DNA of 46,838 nt, from the IMG/VR virus record IMGVR_UViG_3300008085_000025, positions 1 through 46,838 of that record; one strand, given 5' to 3'. Both the position numbers and the translations under genes were made by a program. Every line of letters starts with the position of its first letter. Within the stretch, counting starts at the first letter, position 1. The notes beneath the pieces were generated by a model. That model was given only the letters and a program-made list of their open reading frames with translations, did no database searches and had not been told where the DNA came from. This stretch comes from a virus (taxonomy: Duplodnaviria > Heunggongvirae > Uroviricota > Caudoviricetes). This document shows, piece by piece, positions 1,316 to 33,009 of this stretch.

Positions 1316-3470
1316 CTATTTTGGAGAATCCGTTTTTCAATTCAATTTTGATTTGATCTTTGAATGAATCTTTGATTTCGTCTCTATGCGAAATGATGAA
1401 CATTGACAGTTTATTCTTTTCTGCTACCTCTTTCATCAGCTTTACGGTTTTTCTTACACCAACATTACTCAGACCGACATCTAGACATTCGTCTAGAATA
1501 TACAAGTTGATGAAATTGTGCTTGGATTGTAGAACGTCTCTGAAGGCCAGAGAGAGGGCAATGTTTATCCGTGCCTTCTGTCCAGACGAAAGGCTCGTAA
1601 AGGTGATCTCACGGTCAAACTGGCCAATTTCCATGGAGAGGTCAGATTTGAACTTAGCCTTGTGAGGCAAACCCATGGTGCTCAAATAATAGTGCAATCG
1701 TTCGTTTAGGAACGGCAGGTACTTGTCCATCAAAGCTTTTCTTACAAACGAGTCCTTCTTAGTTAAAAGCTTTAACAAGAATTCTTGATGTTTAACTGTT
1801 TTCTCAAGAGAGTCGATTTCTTCAGACTTGCTTTCCTTGACCCTAAAACCTTGTAAAGTTTCAAGTGATTTTTCATAAGGGTTTTCTTGTTCTACAAGGT
1901 ATCCTTTTTTTTCTTTCGCTGATTCCATCTTGTTTTTGGCTTCGAAGAGTTCTCGTAGGGTACCGAATGAAGGACTATCAAAAGTCTTTCCCTTCTCTAT
2001 TTCAATGTCGCTTTTTATTTTTCCAAGTTCTTTCAAGAGTGACTCTATCTCGTCATTTCTATTAGAATGAGGATTTTGTTCTACTTTTAATTCTTCGATA
2101 GTTTCTTTGACACCATCTCTAGCGTTCCGAAAACTTCCGACCATGAAGGGATGAGTGAATTCATTTGGTATTTGATTTTTGATTTCCTCTAATCTAACAG
2201 TAGATTCGCTAATTGATTCTTCTATCTCCTGTGAGGTTTTCAGAGTTTTCTTGAGAACTTCAGAAAGAGTCTTCAATTCATCAACAACACTTTCGAGTTT
2301 ATCTTTCGAGTCCTTGTAATCTTGAGAACAGTAAGGACATTTGGCGTTTTCCAAAGTCTTTTTTTCTTTTTCAAGTTCTTCTACTGCATCTAGACCTTCA
2401 TCAAGGACCTTTTCCAACTTGCTCAGCTCTCTTTTCTTTTCCCCTATTTCCTTTTCCAGATTGTCTCTATCCTGAAAGAGGATCAATATCTTGTCGAGAT
2501 CTTCTTCAGAAAATCTCTCGTAATTGGTCAATTCTTTTTCAAGTTCAACAATTTTTTTAGCTTTATTCTCATCATATGCTTCGAACTTCTTTTGTTCTTC
2601 TGTATAACGAGTCATAGTTCTGGATTCTTCTGTTAAAGAAGACTGTAGTTCCTTCAACAGTTTATTGTGTACGTCTAGTTTTTCCAATAAGATTTCTTCC
2701 TTATCGAAATTGAATTTGCTATATTTTTCAATCAACTTTTCAACTTCTTCAATATCCAACTGGTGCTGATGATTCCAAGATGCAATATTTTTTTCCGCTT
2801 CTTCCACACCCTTTTTGTGTCTGGCGTGTTCTTGTTTGATTTCTTCGTTGGAATCTTTGGCATATTTCAAATCACTCTTACTGGATTTGATCTGTTCTTT
2901 TAAGGTTTCGGCCTTTTTTGTAAGTTCAGTATAGGAGAAAAGTTCTTCTATTACATCTCTCTGCTTAGCTAGAGGCATTTTTAAAAAAGATTCTTCGCTT
3001 GCAGCGTATGTTATGATCCTACTGAATATCTCGTATGGGACTTTGACAATTTCCTCGGCAATGTAAACATTAGCATTCGAAATACTGTCTGGTGTTATGT
3101 CTTTCCCGTTCTTGACAATTTTAACACCACTACCGCCCATTGCTTTATTTTTTCTATATCTGCTTATTTTGTAGATATCTTCTTTTATTTTAAAGTCTAT
3201 TTCCACAAGGAGATCCTTGTTGTTGATGTTGTTTATTAGGTTGTCTTTCTTTTCTGATTCTTTCCCTAGAGCCAGATCGTAAAGAGCGAAAGTTATTGCC
3301 ATCAACAATGAACTTTTCCCGCACCCATTAGAGTCCATTTCTCCATTCACAGAAGCATCGTGGTTGATACCAGTAATAAGGGTTGGATTCTTTCTCTGTA
3401 GATCTAAGCTAACGGCCTCATTCCCGTAGGACAGGAAATTTTGTAATGTCACTTTTTCAAATACAATCAT
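1308..3470 (-). CDS. gp46: Rad50/SbcC-like recombination exonuclease ATPase subunit (T4 gp46-like)
   Basis: LQNFLSYGN, Walker A NGCGKSS, long coiled coil with CPYC zinc hook, signature LSSGQ, Walker B YILDE, H-loop ISH. Confidence 0.95.
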   Translation of the reverse strand: MIVFEKVTLQNFLSYGNEAVSLDLQRKNPTLITGINHDASVNGEMDSNGCGKSSLLMAITFALYDLALGKESEKKDNLINNINNKDLLVEIDFKIKEDIYKISRYRKNKAMGGSGVKIVKNGKDITPDSISNANVYIAEEIVKVPYEIFSRIITYAASEESFLKMPLAKQRDVIEELFSYTELTKKAETLKEQIKSSKSDLKYAKDSNEEIKQEHARHKKGVEEAEKNIASWNHQHQLDIEEVEKLIEKYSKFNFDKEEILLEKLDVHNKLLKELQSSLTEESRTMTRYTEEQKKFEAYDENKAKKIVELEKELTNYERFSEEDLDKILILFQDRDNLEKEIGEKKRELSKLEKVLDEGLDAVEELEKEKKTLENAKCPYCSQDYKDSKDKLESVVDELKTLSEVLKKTLKTSQEIEESISESTVRLEEIKNQIPNEFTHPFMVGSFRNARDGVKETIEELKVEQNPHSNRNDEIESLLKELGKIKSDIEIEKGKTFDSPSFGTLRELFEAKNKMESAKEKKGYLVEQENPYEKSLETLQGFRVKESKSEEIDSLEKTVKHQEFLLKLLTKKDSFVRKALMDKYLPFLNERLHYYLSTMGLPHKAKFKSDLSMEIGQFDREITFTSLSSGQKARINIALSLAFRDVLQSKHNFINLYILDECLDVGLSNVGVRKTVKLMKEVAEKNKLSMFIISHRDEIKDSFKDQIKIELKNGFSKIVT

Positions 3471-27521: not shown

Positions 27522-28029
27522 AGTCGAATGTGGAAGCGATGTTGCAGATTTCCTCCGCTCTTACATGAATATAAATCCTTCACCTCTACAGATTAGGATA
27601 TTGCATCATTTGTCGAAAAACAATATGAGTGGGGTTGCAGGGCCGAGGGCATCAGGCATTACTACCGCAGTACTAGGACATTTGCTATATAATTTTGTCG
27701 ATAAAAACCATCAAACAATTGTGCTAATGGCCAACAACATGCAATCGGCGAAACACAATTTAACAATTTTCAGAGATATGATGTTGTCGATTAACCATCA
27801 ATATATTGATATCAATACGAACATCAAATGCACCAAATGGGGACTAAAACTAATTAACGGTTCTAGGGTAATGGCTACAAACACGGTGCGTTCTTTCGAG
27901 GGAGCACACATTACACATTTGTTTGTAGACGACTTCTACAAGTATAATTATAGAGACGGTTCAGAACTTTTAGATTGTATATACCCTGTGATGGCACGTA
28001 ACAATGGTCAAATTATTTTAGGGTCAACG

Positions 28030-28248
28030 GGTGGTACGGTTCCTGTGAGCAGTAATATATTCCCTACATTACAAGTGTAACCCGTTTTTTCATATTATAC
28101 TATTTCTCGTAAATATCTTTAGAGATGATATAGATGTGAAAACGGTGATAACCCTATAACTATATAAGTGTGCAGCCGACCCAAATTATTTCATCGAGCG
28201 TCTCGCAGCAGGAATCCCCTCCCTAAAGTGAGGGGGGGGGGTGTCGAG
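28030..28248 (+). mobile_element. Non-autonomous IS200/IS605-like insert (right end / TnpB omega-RNA-like scaffold); boundaries approximate
   Basis: 3' end GCAGCAGGAATCCCCTCCC-TAAA-GTGAGGGG...GGTGTCGA resembles the IS605-group right end (GAAGCAGGAATCCCC-hairpin-GGGGAGGATGTCAA); contains stop codons and separates two in-frame halves of the TerL paralog; no tnpA or tnpB; left end not identified. Confidence 0.5.
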
Positions 28249-28442
28249 ACAAGTTGTTTGTCCCGTAACGAAGGGGATTTGTTTGAGGAAATGTGGAACA
28301 ATGGGTTGAGTGAAGGTTCTCCAATGAATTCTATAAAGATCTCTTGGGACACCGTCCCATATAGAGACGAAGAGTTTAAACGACGCACGATTGACGCTAT
28401 AGGCTTAGACCAGTGGAATAAAGAGTATGAGTTTTGGGTGTA

Positions 28443-28748: not shown

Positions 28749-31700
28749 TTGTCCCATTTGTTTATGAGTAGAAGAAGTAACCCAAGACTTAAAAAAGCTT
28801 TCTCCGAGCAGTCCTATACAGTAGAACAAGCACAAGAGTTAATGAAATGTGCCAGAGACCCGGTTTATTTCATTACAAACTATGTGTTTATCAAACACCC
28901 GGTTAGGGGACAGATCAAGTTCTCCATGTATGATTATCAACAAAATATGGTCAGACAATTTGAAAAGAATAGATACAATATTGTTCTAGCATCTAGACAG
29001 GTTGGTAAGACTGAAACATCTGCGGCATATCTACTCTGGTACGCCCTATTCAACGAAGAGAAGATGGTGTTGATTCTTTCCAATAAATCCGATGGCGCTA
29101 AAGAGATTATATCCAAGATTCAAAACGCTTATGAAGAATTGCCACATTGGCTGAAGCCGGGGATCGATGATGATTCTTGGAATAAGCATGAATGTAGGTT
29201 TGACAACAAGTCTAGAATTCTTGCTGGTGCCACTTCTGCCGATTCTGCCCGTGGTCTTGCTATCAGTCTTTTGTATCTTGACGAGTTCGCATTTGTAAAG
29301 ACACACTTACAGGAAGAGTTCTGGACTTCGGTTTTACCAACTCTATCTTGTTTGTCGGGTGATACTTTAATCTTTACACAAGACGGTTTGAAAGAAATAG
29401 AAGAATTCCACAAGGAAAAAAATGTGGGAGACTATTTTGAGATAAAAGGCTTGGCCACATGGGGGATCGGTGGAAGAGAACGTGTTTCCCATGGTTATGT
29501 TAGTCCGGAATCTGAAACCCAAATCATTACAAATCTTTGGGGGATGGAGGTGGAAGCCACGCTCAAACACCCGTTTTGGGTTGCTGGGCCGGATGGTCCA
29601 TTCATGAAACCCAATCAAGAATTATCAGAAAAAGACTATATTCGTGTAGATTCTGGAATGAACATGTGGGGTAATAACACATTGAAACCAGAGCATGCAT
29701 ATATGCTAGGTGGTTATATTGCAGAGGGTTGGACGCAGAAGAAACACACAACAGGTAAAGCATACAGTATTCTGGTCTCGAATACAGATGACGAATTCAG
29801 AGATGTATATTTAAACTCTAATTTGATAAAGGAATTTACACAACATAGTCAAGAATCTCATAAGTTGGTTTGTAGTTCTCTAGAGTTGGTAGAAACTTTT
29901 GAGAGTTGGGGCGTTGACGTATACGCGAAATGTTACGAGAAAACCACCCCAAAGACTATTTTTACTAGTTCTAAAGATACCGTAACAAACTATTTAGCAG
30001 GACTTTTCGATGGAGACGGCTCCATTACAGATCGTTCTATAAACTTAACAAGCACCAGCAAGAAGTTGCTAAAAGAAACACAATTATTACTATTGAATAT
30101 GGGAATCATCAGTAGAGTATATATTAATGATGGTACTAAAAAGAGGCCAAGAAGAATCGCCAAAAACAACAGTGTTACTCAAACCTGTAGAGACTCGTAT
30201 TCTCTCAATATACCGTTGTCGCAGTATGAGTTGTTTAAACAAAACATACCCATACGAATACAAAGAAAAATCGATAAACTAAATCACATCATTTCAAATA
30301 GAAAGCAAGATGACTACAAACAGTTCACAATCCCTTGTGATGTTATTACACCAACAATAAGAAAGATTTTGAAAGAATGCAATCTTACGATAGGAAGAGC
30401 GAGAACCGAGTATAACATTCGCTTGGATAAAATACTGGACGGGAAATCTGGTAGAGTCTGTACCAACCAAAAATTTAATCTATTTTCCGATATGGTGAAA
30501 AAAGAAAATAGTGTTGTTTGGGAAAAACATAAATCATTTTGGGATGGATATTTGGTGAAAACCTCATGGGTGAAAATAAAAAAAATGACTCCGTCTTATC
30601 AGAAAAAGACCTATGATTTTACTGTTCCCGGATCACATTCATTTTTACAGTCCGGGTTCATGGGGTCAAATACAGGTGGTTCATGTATCATTTCAAGCAC
30701 CCCAAATGGCAACAGCAATCGATTTGCACAAATGTGGAGAGAGGCAAACAATGATGGGGAATTTGTTCCTACACATGTTCCGTGGAACGCTCCTCCGGGT
30801 CGAGATGAAGATTTCAAAAAGCAACAGATTAGCATCCTTGGAAAAAGAAAATGGCTTCAAGAGTATGAGTGTTGTCATGGAGATACATTAATTGAGCTTT
30901 CTAATTCAGATGGTACTAGGTTTGTCAAGGTGCCAATTTGCATGGCTTACGAGGCATTGGAACGGGACGTTGATATATTTGACATGAATCCCGGAATTCT
31001 TACAGGAAAGTATGTAGTTTCCCCACTAGACGGGAAAAAATATTGTAGATGTAACGGCCAATTTTTTAAACATATAAAAAGCTACGGTTATTGTTCGTAT
31101 CAAGATTTTTTTGAATCATTATTTCCGGCCCACATAAAGTATTGCGGTTGTGGTAATAGGGCCAGTTTCAAGAATGCATCAATGTCGTACTATAGTGGAT
31201 GTGGCGAAATATTCTGTAGGAATAGAAATATATCATCTAGGAAGAAAAAGTTCACGAAAAAAGACTGGCAGGTTGTCGCAGACCGGTATAGAAAAACAAT
31301 GTCTAAAAAAGAACCAGATGAAATAAGAGAGATTATAGAGCGAAGAACGAAAAATGGACACGCGAATTGCAGCTACAAAAAATCGGTAACCAAGAGGCGA
31401 AAAACCTGTACTGAACGCCATGGTAGTTCCGTTTATAATAATCCTAGCAAAATATCTTATACCAAGAAAAATTGGACAAAAGAAAAAAAGGAAGAATTTT
31501 TGTCAAGACTCAAGGAGTCTCTCGGCGGGAGATGGTTGAATGACTATCATGACGAAAAAATGTATAAAAGACGGAGAAAAACTTTAGAAGAAAGTGGGAG
31601 TGTTGTCCCAATAGAAGCATTATCCGAGTGGGAGTTGTATCGAAATGAAGTTCGAAATCTCACAAAAAGGAATTACAGAAAATTCAAAAAGATTATTAAT

Positions 31701-31892
31701 CCAAATAATTTGCCTAGAGGAAACGGAAGAGGCAAATATCATCTCGATCATATAATTCCCGTTTTATACGGTTTTTTGAATGATGTCCCTGTAGAAGAAA
31801 TGGCCGGTGTGGATAACTTACAAATGTTGTTGGATAAAGATAACAGGAAGAAATCGTATAAGTACGAGGGGGTATACGATGGTCAAGAATGA
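28749..31892 (+). CDS. gp17: Terminase large subunit, N-terminal (ATPase) part: extein, cis intein, split-intein N-half, HNH endonuclease
   Basis: KCARDPVYF, ASRQVGKT (Walker A), LYLDEFAF (Walker B), SSTPNG, QEYE; start may be ATG 28764. Confidence 0.95.
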   Translation: MSHLFMSRRSNPRLKKAFSEQSYTVEQAQELMKCARDPVYFITNYVFIKHPVRGQIKFSMYDYQQNMVRQFEKNRYNIVLASRQVGKTETSAAYLLWYALFNEEKMVLILSNKSDGAKEIISKIQNAYEELPHWLKPGIDDDSWNKHECRFDNKSRILAGATSADSARGLAISLLYLDEFAFVKTHLQEEFWTSVLPTLSCLSGDTLIFTQDGLKEIEEFHKEKNVGDYFEIKGLATWGIGGRERVSHGYVSPESETQIITNLWGMEVEATLKHPFWVAGPDGPFMKPNQELSEKDYIRVDSGMNMWGNNTLKPEHAYMLGGYIAEGWTQKKHTTGKAYSILVSNTDDEFRDVYLNSNLIKEFTQHSQESHKLVCSSLELVETFESWGVDVYAKCYEKTTPKTIFTSSKDTVTNYLAGLFDGDGSITDRSINLTSTSKKLLKETQLLLLNMGIISRVYINDGTKKRPRRIAKNNSVTQTCRDSYSLNIPLSQYELFKQNIPIRIQRKIDKLNHIISNRKQDDYKQFTIPCDVITPTIRKILKECNLTIGRARTEYNIRLDKILDGKSGRVCTNQKFNLFSDMVKKENSVVWEKHKSFWDGYLVKTSWVKIKKMTPSYQKKTYDFTVPGSHSFLQSGFMGSNTGGSCIISSTPNGNSNRFAQMWREANNDGEFVPTHVPWNAPPGRDEDFKKQQISILGKRKWLQEYECCHGDTLIELSNSDGTRFVKVPICMAYEALERDVDIFDMNPGILTGKYVVSPLDGKKYCRCNGQFFKHIKSYGYCSYQDFFESLFPAHIKYCGCGNRASFKNASMSYYSGCGEIFCRNRNISSRKKKFTKKDWQVVADRYRKTMSKKEPDEIREIIERRTKNGHANCSYKKSVTKRRKTCTERHGSSVYNNPSKISYTKKNWTKEKKEEFLSRLKESLGGRWLNDYHDEKMYKRRRKTLEESGSVVPIEALSEWELYRNEVRNLTKRNYRKFKKIINPNNLPRGNGRGKYHLDHIIPVLYGFLNDVPVEEMAGVDNLQMLLDKDNRKKSYKYEGVYDGQE
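29349..30671 (+). mobile_element. Cis intein (441 aa) with LAGLIDADG homing endonuclease
   Basis: PTLS|CLSGDT; block B TLKH; LGGYIAEG and LAGLFDGDG; YDFTV...GSN|TGG; splicing restores PTLSTGGSCIISSTPNG. Confidence 0.93.
30870..30968 (+). mobile_element. Split-intein N-fragment (about 33 aa, block A only)
   Basis: QEYE|CCHGDTLIEL...VPICMAYEALERD; the C-terminal limit is approximate because it runs into the HNH domain. Confidence 0.8.
30984..31892 (+). mobile_element. HNH homing endonuclease fused in frame to the split-intein N-half
   Basis: Cys-rich N-terminus (CRC, CGCG...C...C), basic KRRKTC.ERHG segment, C-terminal YHLDHIIP...NLQML...DNRKK. Confidence 0.8.
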
Positions 31893-32208
31893 TAAGGGAT
31901 GGAAGATACTCGCGAAAAACGGATTCGAATCTTTTGCCGGTATAGCCAATCAGGGTAAGAAGGAAATATTGGAAATTCGGTTTACAGACAAAACTTCGGT
32001 TAAGGTTTCGCTCGACCATGTACTGTTTAGCTTAGATTGTGAAGAAGTGTCGGCTAAAACTATAGTTTCAGGGGATAAAGTTCTTTCCACTGACCCAAAA
32101 CACCCAAAAACTGTTCAGGATGTTTTCGAAATAGATGGTGCAGAAACTTTTGATATTATAGAAACTGAAAGCAATACATATTTTTCAAACGGAATATTGA
32201 GTCATAAC
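31879..32208 (+). mobile_element. Split-intein C-fragment (blocks B, F, G)
   Basis: KILAKNGF..F.GI, block B SLDH, FDII, YFSNGILSHN|C(+1). Confidence 0.9.
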
Positions 32209-33009
32209 TGCCACTTTCTTTCATCAGACGTAACGTTGATTGACAACTTTGCACTCACCCAAATAGAGAAAAAGCTCGACGATTTATACAAGTCCAATGG
32301 TGGTGAGCCTATTATTGAAATGACGGTGGCTGACGTAGATTTTTTCAAAAAGCCCAAGAAGTCTCTCGCTTATATTGTCAGTGTTGACGTAAGTACGGGG
32401 TCTGGTAAGGACTATTCTGTAATACAAATAACCGAGTTCCCTACAATGCAGCAAGTTGGTCAGTTTAGGTCTAATCAGACTTCGGAAAAGTTTTTGTATT
32501 CAAAGTTGAAGAATATACTATTGTTCTTGGAACAGAACAGTAAAGAGGTATATTTTTCCGTAGAAAACAACGGTGTGGGGTCTAGCATTTTAGCGATGTA
32601 TGAATTCGATGATAGGCCGCCGACTAAGTCATATTTGATATCAGATTCCATAGGGAACAGGTTGGGTATAACAATGTCAGAGCAGGTAAAAAGGCGCACT
32701 GCATTGAAACTAAAATCCATGGTGGAGACTGAAGCCTACAAAATTCTTTGTCCTGTTTTAATTAACGAATTCAAAAATTACACAAGACAGGGCGCAACTT
32801 TCAAAGCTGAAGCAGGTGCGACGGATGACATCATTGCTTCTTTGTTGATCATGGTTCGAATTTTAGAAGAAATGGCAGATTTCAACCCATACGCATATGA
32901 GAAAGTTTATAACGCGAAGGGATATGATGATAAACAGGATGAATGGGAAGAAACTTTTGTAGAAAACCCGAATAGTCTGGATGATGCACCAATGCCTATT
33001 GTATTTTGA
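31879..33009 (+). CDS. gp17: Terminase large subunit, C-terminal (nuclease) part, preceded by a 110-aa split-intein C-fragment
   Basis: GAGG SD and ATG 31879; after SHN|CHFL come VDVSTGSGKDYS, VENNGVG and DDII RNase-H-like nuclease motifs. Confidence 0.92.
   Translation: MVKNDKGWKILAKNGFESFAGIANQGKKEILEIRFTDKTSVKVSLDHVLFSLDCEEVSAKTIVSGDKVLSTDPKHPKTVQDVFEIDGAETFDIIETESNTYFSNGILSHNCHFLSSDVTLIDNFALTQIEKKLDDLYKSNGGEPIIEMTVADVDFFKKPKKSLAYIVSVDVSTGSGKDYSVIQITEFPTMQQVGQFRSNQTSEKFLYSKLKNILLFLEQNSKEVYFSVENNGVGSSILAMYEFDDRPPTKSYLISDSIGNRLGITMSEQVKRRTALKLKSMVETEAYKILCPVLINEFKNYTRQGATFKAEAGATDDIIASLLIMVRILEEMADFNPYAYEKVYNAKGYDDKQDEWEETFVENPNSLDDAPMPIVF

Follow-up and report, generated by a model that had tools for sequence, protein, structure and literature searches.

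The gene for the large terminase subunit (TerL) in the window, by which we mean the whole 46,838-nt stretch that was analysed (positions 1 to 46,838 of the IMG/VR virus record IMGVR_UViG_3300008085_000025), is broken by an atypically split intein, and the N-terminal half of this intein (IntN) runs without a stop codon into a putative homing endonuclease of the HNH type. The C-terminal half (IntC) is encoded together with the remainder of TerL in a second, overlapping open reading frame (ORF). Judging from the sequence, this terL is probably a fractured gene, in which two polypeptides are made from one transcript and joined by trans-splicing into TerL, with an IntN-HNH protein as by-product. 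In the scheme that we propose, the first polypeptide would carry the N-extein with a cis-splicing LAGLIDADG intein, the ~33-aa IntN, a 10-aa linker and the ~300-aa HNH endonuclease, and the second, translated from its own Shine-Dalgarno sequence (SD) and an ATG lying over the stop of the first, would carry the 110-aa IntC followed by the TerL C-extein. IntN and IntC would assemble one HINT fold as in the split inteins AceL-TerL and GOS-TerL and would splice QEYE to CHFLSSD in trans to give a 527-aa TerL, while the nuclease would be freed as the IntN-HNH by-product, probably still bound to IntC. Released in this way, the nuclease would be made only when, and as much as, the N-terminal part of TerL is translated. 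The enzyme may be a selfish one that cuts intein-less terL alleles during co-infection.

Both reading frames lie on the + strand. ORF1 (28764-31892) encodes the TerL N-extein, the LAGLIDADG intein, a middle extein, IntN and the HNH nuclease. Its frame is open from a TTG at 28749, and the ATG at 28764 (MSRRSNP) is the likely start, as in relatives (MSRRRNP). The first part of the N-extein (28764..29348; 195 aa) holds the Walker A/B ATPase, matches Pfam Terminase_6N (E 1.2e-12) and is 91% identical to residues 1-208 of the intein-less TerL P0003 (throughout, P numbers designate compared proteins and L numbers compared loci). It is followed within ORF1 by intein 1, a one-piece LAGLIDADG intein of 441 aa (29349..30671; PTLS/C...GSN/T, where a slash marks a splice junction), the boundaries of which were set by alignment with intein-less relatives and which matches Pfam LAGLIDADG_3 (E 3.3e-16) and Intein_splicing; L005 and L019 have this intein, whereas L014 and L013 lack it. 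The middle extein (30672..30869; 66 aa, 88% identical to P0003 residues 192-264) has the C-terminus KRKWLQEYE. The IntN of ~33 aa (CCHGDTLIELSNSDGTRFVKVPICMAYEALERD; 30870..30968) starts with CCHGDTLIEL directly after QEYE, its first residue being C708 of ORF1 (nt 30870), and it aligns with the free IntN fragments of relatives. From 30870 there are 340 codons without a stop, leading through IntN, a linker of VDIFDMNPGI (30969..30998) that includes Met39 (ATG 30984), and a homing-endonuclease module of ~297 aa (30999..31889) to the stop codon TGA at 31890-31892.

ORF2 begins in the +1 frame with the ATG at 31879, so that the 14 nt shared by the two frames (ATGGTCAAGAATGA; 31879..31892) contain both the start of ORF2 and the stop of ORF1, an arrangement that suggests translational coupling. 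A Shine-Dalgarno-like GAGGGGG (31866..31872) is located 6 nt 5' of this ATG, inside the nuclease coding sequence. The IntC of 110 aa (31879..32208) carries block B (SLDH), block F (FDIIETESNTYFSNG) and block G (ILSHN), and the TerL C-extein (32209..33009; 266 aa and stop) starts with CHFLSSD, contains the nuclease domain of TerL and is 90% identical to P0003 residues 259-527. This layout agrees with the original prediction, made from the letters alone, as regards the intein start CCHGDTLIEL after QEYE with an IntN of ~33 aa, the stop-free run into a ~300-aa Cys-rich/HNH endonuclease ending at TGA 31892, the +1-frame ORF with a GAGG SD, an ATG at 31879 and a 110-aa IntC followed by Cys and TerL, and the position of the nuclease between blocks A and B (3' of the former and 5' of the latter). 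The length of the joined TerL, which had been put at ~532 aa, needs correction: the exteins of 261 and 266 aa add up to 527 aa, and the intein-less relatives P0003 and P0004 have precisely this length. At the insertion site the intein-less TerL alleles (527 aa, 86-90% identical) read QEYECEFLSSD. The TerL of the source phage carries two inteins, of which one would need cis-splicing and the other trans-splicing for maturation.

The affiliation of the intein is clearest in IntC. Its best match in the Protein Data Bank (PDB) is 6dsl_B, "Consensus engineered intein CatC" (E 3.8e-7), with IntC residues 4-109 aligning end to end with 6dsl_B residues 13-111; the Cat intein of entry 6DSL is a consensus of AceL-TerL and GOS-TerL. 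For the IntN region the only PDB match is 6dsl_A (CatN), in which EFE/ALSGDTMIE faces EYE/CCHGDTLIE and the first intein residue is Ala (C1A). Alignment of the two halves to AceL-TerL and GOS-TerL, proposed beforehand as a check, thus gave a clear result for IntC and only a weak one for IntN (E 0.97). The motifs of a class 1 HINT domain are all present (C1 of CCHGDT, SLDH, FDIIE and SHN/C), and H47, D92, H109, N110 and C+1 (C111) of IntC are invariant in 11 relatives (32-72% identical). A comparison with related phages for versions with a stop after IntN had also been suggested, and such versions were found: in L015, L017, L018, L025 and L026 a free IntN fragment ends with a stop codon where the IntN of the window ends, at the equivalent of residues 30-34. 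The IntN of the window lacks this stop, and its frame continues for 307 codons into the nuclease. When IntN and IntC were predicted as a complex, the score was 0.69 as against 0.08 for the best control, three runs agreed in at least 92% of contacts, and the predicted local distance difference test value (pLDDT) of the partner was at least 76. Among solved complexes 58 of 80, and among mismatched pairs 2 of 110, attained the mark for this score; a predicted complex shows likeness, not binding, and since the similar 6DSL complex has been solved, the pass may stem from the predictor's knowledge of that structure.

The nuclease module consists of an N-terminal Cys-rich domain (~30999-31244), a helical middle and a C-terminal HNH domain (~31617-31871). 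The last of these contains the motif YHLDHIIPV..NDV..NLQMLLDKDNRKKS (YHLDHIIPV...NLQML...DNRKKS), in which all HNH motif residues are intact, and D293, H294, N316 and L317 are near-invariant in 32 sequences of the nuclease family. In the AlphaFold2 (AF2) model of the nuclease (pLDDT 89.5), residues 290-327 form a beta-beta-alpha core made up of a strand at 290-294, a strand at 317-321 and a helix at 322-327. Structural comparison with VIA-align related residues 250-334 to the Gme HNH nuclease 4h9d_A (Z 5.6, root-mean-square deviation 4.5, 73 aligned) and residues 248-335 to 5h0m (Z 4.4). Sequence profiles from Pfam and PDB gave only DUF7487 and zinc-finger models, in some members of the family, and a search of PHROGs returned one family of unknown function. 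An exhaustive profile-free search recovered free-standing homologues of ~300 aa that align from residue 44-46 to the end; among them, P0039 (E 1.4e-77) and P0040 are each 45% identical to the window nuclease. In addition, the Cys-rich N-domain shares 44% identity (E 2e-29) with that of P0056, a protein combining DUF7487 with a Vsr-like MTES_1575 nuclease. A common N-domain with differing nuclease domains is, as far as these alignments go, the modular build typical of homing endonucleases.

Relatives of the window present several arrangements of intein and nuclease, all of them at the QE[YF][ED]/C site of TerL and in the same intein family. The N-fused, full-length IntN-HNH protein is found in the window, L014 and L019, and that of L014 (P0188) is 67% identical to that of the window. 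N-fused forms with large internal deletions in the nuclease occur in L005 and L003. In L005 (5800-6011), comparison with L019 reveals two deletions that removed most of the nuclease, the remnant staying in the IntN frame as far as the start of IntC, which it overlaps; what is selected here may be translational coupling and not the nuclease. L013 has an N-fused, frameshifted nuclease of unsure status, with a +1/-1 indel pair 44 nt apart in A-runs, for which decay and assembly error are indistinguishable in a 2-kb contig. Free-standing HNH genes are present in L025 (P0039), with an IntN stop, a 70-nt spacer, the nuclease and a 53-nt overlap with IntC; in L026 (P0040), with an IntN stop, a 29-nt spacer, the nuclease and a 20-nt overlap; and in the IMG/VR loci L027-L034, with IntC-end motifs downstream in 5/5 loci examined. 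The same N-domain followed by a Vsr-like nuclease occupies this site in L035, L036, L040 and L041. The opposite fusion, HNH-IntC plus TerL's C-terminal portion (697 aa), is displayed by L015 and L016, where an IntN stop and a 36-nt spacer precede an HNH sequence with its own Met. Lastly, L018 has an unrelated free-standing nuclease, and L017 has no nuclease, its intein being GOS-TerL-like with a Ser1 IntN after QEFE and a Cys+1. In the fetched loci 139 other ORFs have this HNH motif, and none of them is fused to IntN. The one-piece form, with both sides fused, was found neither in the 3 matches of a search without an upper length bound nor among these 139 ORFs, the search being a limited one. 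P0098 (1047 aa, with an HNH match at 858-957) was considered as a candidate for the one-piece form and rejected, having no terminase or intein domains.

The distribution of these forms bears on mobility. In a tree of C-exteins the split-intein alleles are scattered among intein-less sisters, and well-supported branches force at least 6 changes. Pairs in which a split allele stands beside an intein-less sister include P0009/P0018, P0007/P0019, P0008/P0012 and P0001+P0002/P0003. The nuclease is decayed in L005, L003 and L013 (the status of the last being unsure) and lost in L017. Scattered alleles together with decayed and lost copies are, at the level of sequence, the pattern of a homing element. 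As to its origin, the fused form would go back to a free-standing HNH gene between IntN and IntC, as in the relatives, followed by loss of the upstream stop and spacer. Derivation of the fused linker (GACATGAATC) from the old spacer was considered and set aside; 7/10 bases match the stop and 5' untranslated region of a free-standing form (GGCATAAATA), which is too short to serve as evidence.

Two explanations would do away with the split itself. The original prediction had pointed out that an indel of 1 nt, in the G5 run for instance, would make one continuous ORF, and a homopolymer G5 (31868-31872) does lie near the ORF1/ORF2 junction. Nevertheless, seven independent assemblies (L006-L012), made from different samples with different pipelines, agree exactly in the junction and its G5 run, and the identical ORF2 product is listed in 89 blocks of the protein index and is present in 23/23 contigs read. 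The +1 arrangement moreover recurs with other junction nucleotides in four diverged lineages, namely L001 (GAGGGACTGCCACATGATTAA, 8-nt overlap), L014 (stop TAA, a 1-nt gap and ATG), L005 (GATAATGCTGGTTAA, 11-nt overlap) and L019 (CAGATGATCCTTAA, 11-nt overlap), of which L001, L014 and L005 are split in +1 likewise yet are without the G5 run. The chance of a sequencing or assembly error is therefore negligible in our estimation. It should be noted that a programmed +1 frameshift at the end of ORF1 would also remove the split, by joining the HNH domain to IntC and giving a one-piece, cis-splicing intein with its nuclease at an unusual site. The +1 relation is maintained across five lineages, 72 nt are open in the +1 frame 5' of ATG 31879, the upstream GAGG motif resembles that of prfB-type shifting, and an in-frame HNH-IntC join is tolerated in L015. 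However, the lineages share no slippery sequence, the last codons before the stop being GAA, GAT, GGA, CCT and GGT in the five of them, and every lineage has a correctly placed ATG behind a purine-rich motif (a GAGG-type motif 5' of the IntC ATG in L001, L014, L005, L019 and L003). In L003 the same frame contains a stop and a 57-nt spacer that still codes for the nuclease tail NLQMLDSRENRRKSFKYE (NLQML..NRRKSFKYE). IntN is encoded separately in L015, L025 and L026, which indicates that this intein family works in trans, and the start of IntC coincides with the start of the solved CatC fragment. Programmed frameshifting is thus a poor explanation too, and we regard it as very improbable.

Whether the nuclease is made as part of the IntN polypeptide is a closer question. 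We infer that there is one transcript, with the nuclease translated as a C-terminal extension of IntN and ORF2 by coupling; no T4-type late promoter (TATAAATA) was found between 18300 and 39950, and no terminator-like site between ORF1 and ORF2 on the + strand. The original prediction that the nuclease has no start of its own and is made as IntN-HNH fares well in the relatives, given the full-length fusion in L014 and L019, the purifying selection on the nuclease and the L019 form without a start codon, and less well in the window itself, where Met39 sits at the point at which free-standing homologues begin, though without an SD. The nuclease might accordingly be mainly a separate ~35-kDa protein initiated at ATG 30984, with read-through from IntN as an incidental loss of the stop and no role for the fusion. 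The free-standing homologues begin only a few residues from Met39, L014 too has Met at this position, and the absence of an SD is weak evidence, since a clear one is missing from about half of the window's genes. We nonetheless judge internal initiation to be unlikely as the main source of the nuclease. The intact, selected nuclease of L019 has Leu (CTA) instead of Met39, and no ATG, GTG or TTG occurs at its start before the invariant N-domain residues, so that this nuclease can only arise as a fusion. In all N-fused lineages the linker DIFD(M/L)NP is maintained as coding sequence; nothing resembling a promoter or an SD was seen 5' of 30984 in the window, whereas ORF2 is preceded by GAGGGGG; and even with internal initiation, the fusion protein would be made whenever the N-terminal part of TerL is translated. 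As for selection, the ratio of nonsynonymous to synonymous substitution rates (dN/dS) is not computable with synonymous sites saturated, and the proportions of nonsynonymous (pN) and synonymous (pS) differences are given instead. Between the window and L014, pN is 0.215 and pS 0.83 (saturated) for the nuclease, with pN 0.145 in its HNH part; the values are pN 0.36 and pS 0.73 for IntC, and pN 0.18-0.26 and pS 0.80-0.87 for the exteins. Between the window and L001, the C-extein has pN 0.07 with pS saturated. By these measures the nuclease is under purifying selection at a level comparable to that of the TerL exteins. This also bears on the suggestion that the nuclease is no longer homing and is either an inactive passenger that keeps the frame open to the coupled ORF2 start or a co-opted helper of the terminase; HNH proteins are reportedly terminase partners in HK97-like packaging machines, and the remnants in L005 and L003, still in the IntN frame after big deletions, fit selection for an open frame and not for nuclease function. 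Such a fate appears improbable, since purifying selection acts over the whole nuclease and is strongest in the HNH part, all motif residues are intact, intein-less close relatives do without the nuclease and show that packaging does not require it, homologous free-standing genes occupy the same intein site, and the sporadic distribution fits a mobile element. Some further points weigh against a trans-spliced terL with a homing HNH nuclease. Splicing, translational coupling, and the activity, target and homing of the nuclease are inferred, and the insertion point apparently equals the QE[YF]E/C site of AceL-TerL and GOS-TerL on a match of E 0.97. Foldseek gave no match to the PDB at E <=0.001, although its top rows were mostly HNH nucleases, and the Pfam HNH models matched none of the 32 family members, so the HNH assignment, suggested by the motif, weak fold matches and the family context, is a putative one. 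A ~300-aa domain placed 10 residues past IntN might slow assembly with IntC, and the sporadic distribution could come from repeated loss by recombination rather than from active homing.

Among known systems, the closest are the characterised atypical split inteins AceL-TerL (25 + 104 aa) and GOS-TerL (37 + 115 aa) (PMC11766414). Like these and Cat, the intein in the window is a class 1 intein in a phage TerL with the break after block A, its IntN of ~33 aa and its IntC of 110 aa (with blocks B, F and G) falling within the known 25-37 and 104-115 aa, and like AceL-TerL it has Cys1 and Cys+1. It differs from all three in being only ~30% identical, in the continuation of IntN into a ~300-aa HNH domain and in the presence of a second, one-piece LAGLIDADG intein in the same gene. 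A second point of comparison is provided by the fractured genes of Dassa et al. (2009), in which an IntN stop is followed by 27-51 nt of non-coding sequence and a free-standing GIY-YIG or Vsr-like gene that overlaps IntC by 6-69 bp; one of those loci was a gp17-like terminase broken at an unusual early point (PMC2677866). The same authors predicted that HNH genes could also fracture genes, though such loci were not seen there, and that loss of the nuclease flanks (their step IIIa) could create one-piece inteins (PMC2677866). The window resembles these genes in having two ORFs on the same strand, IntN and IntC in frame with the host halves, an endonuclease coding sequence between them and an overlap of the nuclease 3' end with the IntC start (14 bp here). 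It departs from them in the HNH type of the nuclease and in the absence of a stop and spacer after IntN, shared with L014 and L019; the stop, the spacer and a free-standing nuclease start are present in L025 and L026, and a stop, a spacer and an HNH sequence with its own Met in L015. The free-standing HNH genes of L025-L034 belong to the same nuclease family (41-45% identity over the full length) and share the TerL site, the intein family and the 3' overlap with IntC, but unlike the window nuclease each begins at a start of its own, behind an IntN stop and a spacer of 29-70 nt. The window locus looks like a half-way form of step IIIa, the loss of endonuclease flanks.

Half-fused layouts also exist in cultured phages. 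In Vibrio phage VP-1 (MH363700.1) a QEYD/C IntN is in frame with a GIY-YIG nuclease, with IntC and the C-terminal part of TerL in another frame, and no other TerL was found in this phage, the split gene being its only one. In Vibrio phage Va1 (MK387337.2) the in-frame fusion joins a Vsr-like nuclease to IntC, on the same side as in L015. Both resemble the window in that a related atypically split intein, with a half-fused nuclease, breaks TerL at the same site, and differ in the nuclease type, which is HNH in the window, GIY-YIG in VP-1 and Vsr-like in Va1. Serratia phage 92A1 has the classical fractured layout, and because VP-1, Va1 and 92A1 are cultured phages, terminases of such layouts must work. 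The VP-1 and Va1 records annotate the fused genes merely as terminase genes, and no paper describing these fusions was found. The VP-1 pieces (L188, 837-4179) are annotated "terminase large subunit" and "terminase like family protein", the second with a start at 3142; the IntC frame is open from 2902 with IntC-like sequence from ~3001, which means that the start was probably annotated too late. A one-piece mini-intein at SGK/C...SHN/T is also present in the first VP-1 piece. More generally, the nuclease domains of one-piece inteins are said to sit at one conserved site between blocks B and F (PMC6801210). The window intein shares with one-piece bifunctional inteins the union of a splicing element and a nuclease in one polypeptide and the dependence of nuclease expression on the host gene, and differs from them in its two ORFs in different frames, in the position of the nuclease before block B and in being joined on the N-side only. 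A 2025 preprint reports that actinophage inteins harbour nested nucleases, out of frame and antisense, and it favours the same model of invasion. A limited literature search found no paper describing an in-frame IntN-nuclease fusion. What appears new is an N-fused, HNH-type, long-lived variant, the fractured genes of 2009 and the half-fused layouts of VP-1 and Va1 being the known background.

The main value of the locus lies in a full natural series at a single site and in a set of predicted new atypical split inteins. Free-standing, N-fused, C-fused, decayed, lost and intein-less stages of one nuclease family occur together at one TerL site in related phages, and the 2009 model, in which a free-standing nuclease invades a mini-intein and later loses its flanks, becomes testable with natural sequences. 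The N-fused stage appears stable across saturating divergence, and its nuclease is joined to the intein away from the conserved insertion site. We suggest, tentatively and with less confidence than for the fractured gene itself, that IntN-HNH is a working two-chain bifunctional intein, which would stay on IntC after splicing, with HINT domain and nuclease acting jointly on DNA and with dose and timing set by TerL translation. If so, the series documents the acquisition of nuclease domains by inteins, and this away from the conserved B-F point. For protein engineering, these natural Cys1/Cys+1 atypically split inteins, 32-72% identical to one another over IntC, are candidates for labelling and semi-synthesis, and their short IntN is naturally encoded with a 300-aa C-terminal cargo, a tolerance that is read from the sequence. 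For phage biology, an essential late enzyme would require one cis- and one presumed trans-splicing event, with a selfish nuclease made in step with it.

Other inteins were seen in the relatives. In L003 (2741-7146) TerL is divided twice, into three pieces. At Walker B, the first split is formed by another atypically split intein (LLY/C with a 35-aa IntN, and an IntC ending YTHN/CDELAF), which holds a free-standing nuclease of 546 aa (PHROG "homing endonuclease", DUF7487/MTES_1575); the second split is the QEYE/C intein with a truncated nuclease remnant. The 546-aa nuclease (P0037) was considered as a relative of the window nuclease and rejected for lack of significant similarity. More IntC-type ends occur in the TerL of relatives (L017 3991-4947; L028, L032 and L035, 5' of the HNH match), reading SHN/T or SHN/S near Walker A and THN/CDEFAF at Walker B. 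With these additional ends at other sites, the TerL of these relatives is a hotspot with up to three inteins. In L018 (6245-9391) the portal gene beside the fractured TerL encodes 1048 aa, matches Pfam Intein_splicing and Portal_T4 and looks intein-containing.

The source of the window is a 117.8-kb IMG/VR record with a CheckV completeness of 34%, and on these figures the virus, which is T4-like, is probably a jumbo phage. T4-like neighbours in the record include gp32, UvsX/RecA and a UvsW-like helicase. The split terL is the only full TerL in the 117.8 kb, the only other candidate being a weak paralogue at 27589-28440, just 5' of terL, with 22-31% identity to TerL residues 59-264. This region varies by strain, with ungapped mismatches bunched at 27750-28250 in L007-L012, probably owing to an indel. 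A megablast comparison of the locus with GenBank phages gave no match. A scan of IMG/VR with the IntN-HNH protein alone as query recovered no relative, unlike the alignment-based scan of IMG/VR, which did; a scan of metagenome contigs with the nuclease alignment gave distant or partial HNH relatives only, and no new classifiable TerL-site loci. Exact copies of TATAAATA, the T4 late-promoter consensus, are found at 23, 5256, 11318, 18292, 39950, 40344 and 43970 (n=7, all on the + strand), as compared with a mean of 2.9 in shuffles, of which 1/100 reached 7. Most of the sites checked lie ~30-40 nt 5' of an ORF start.

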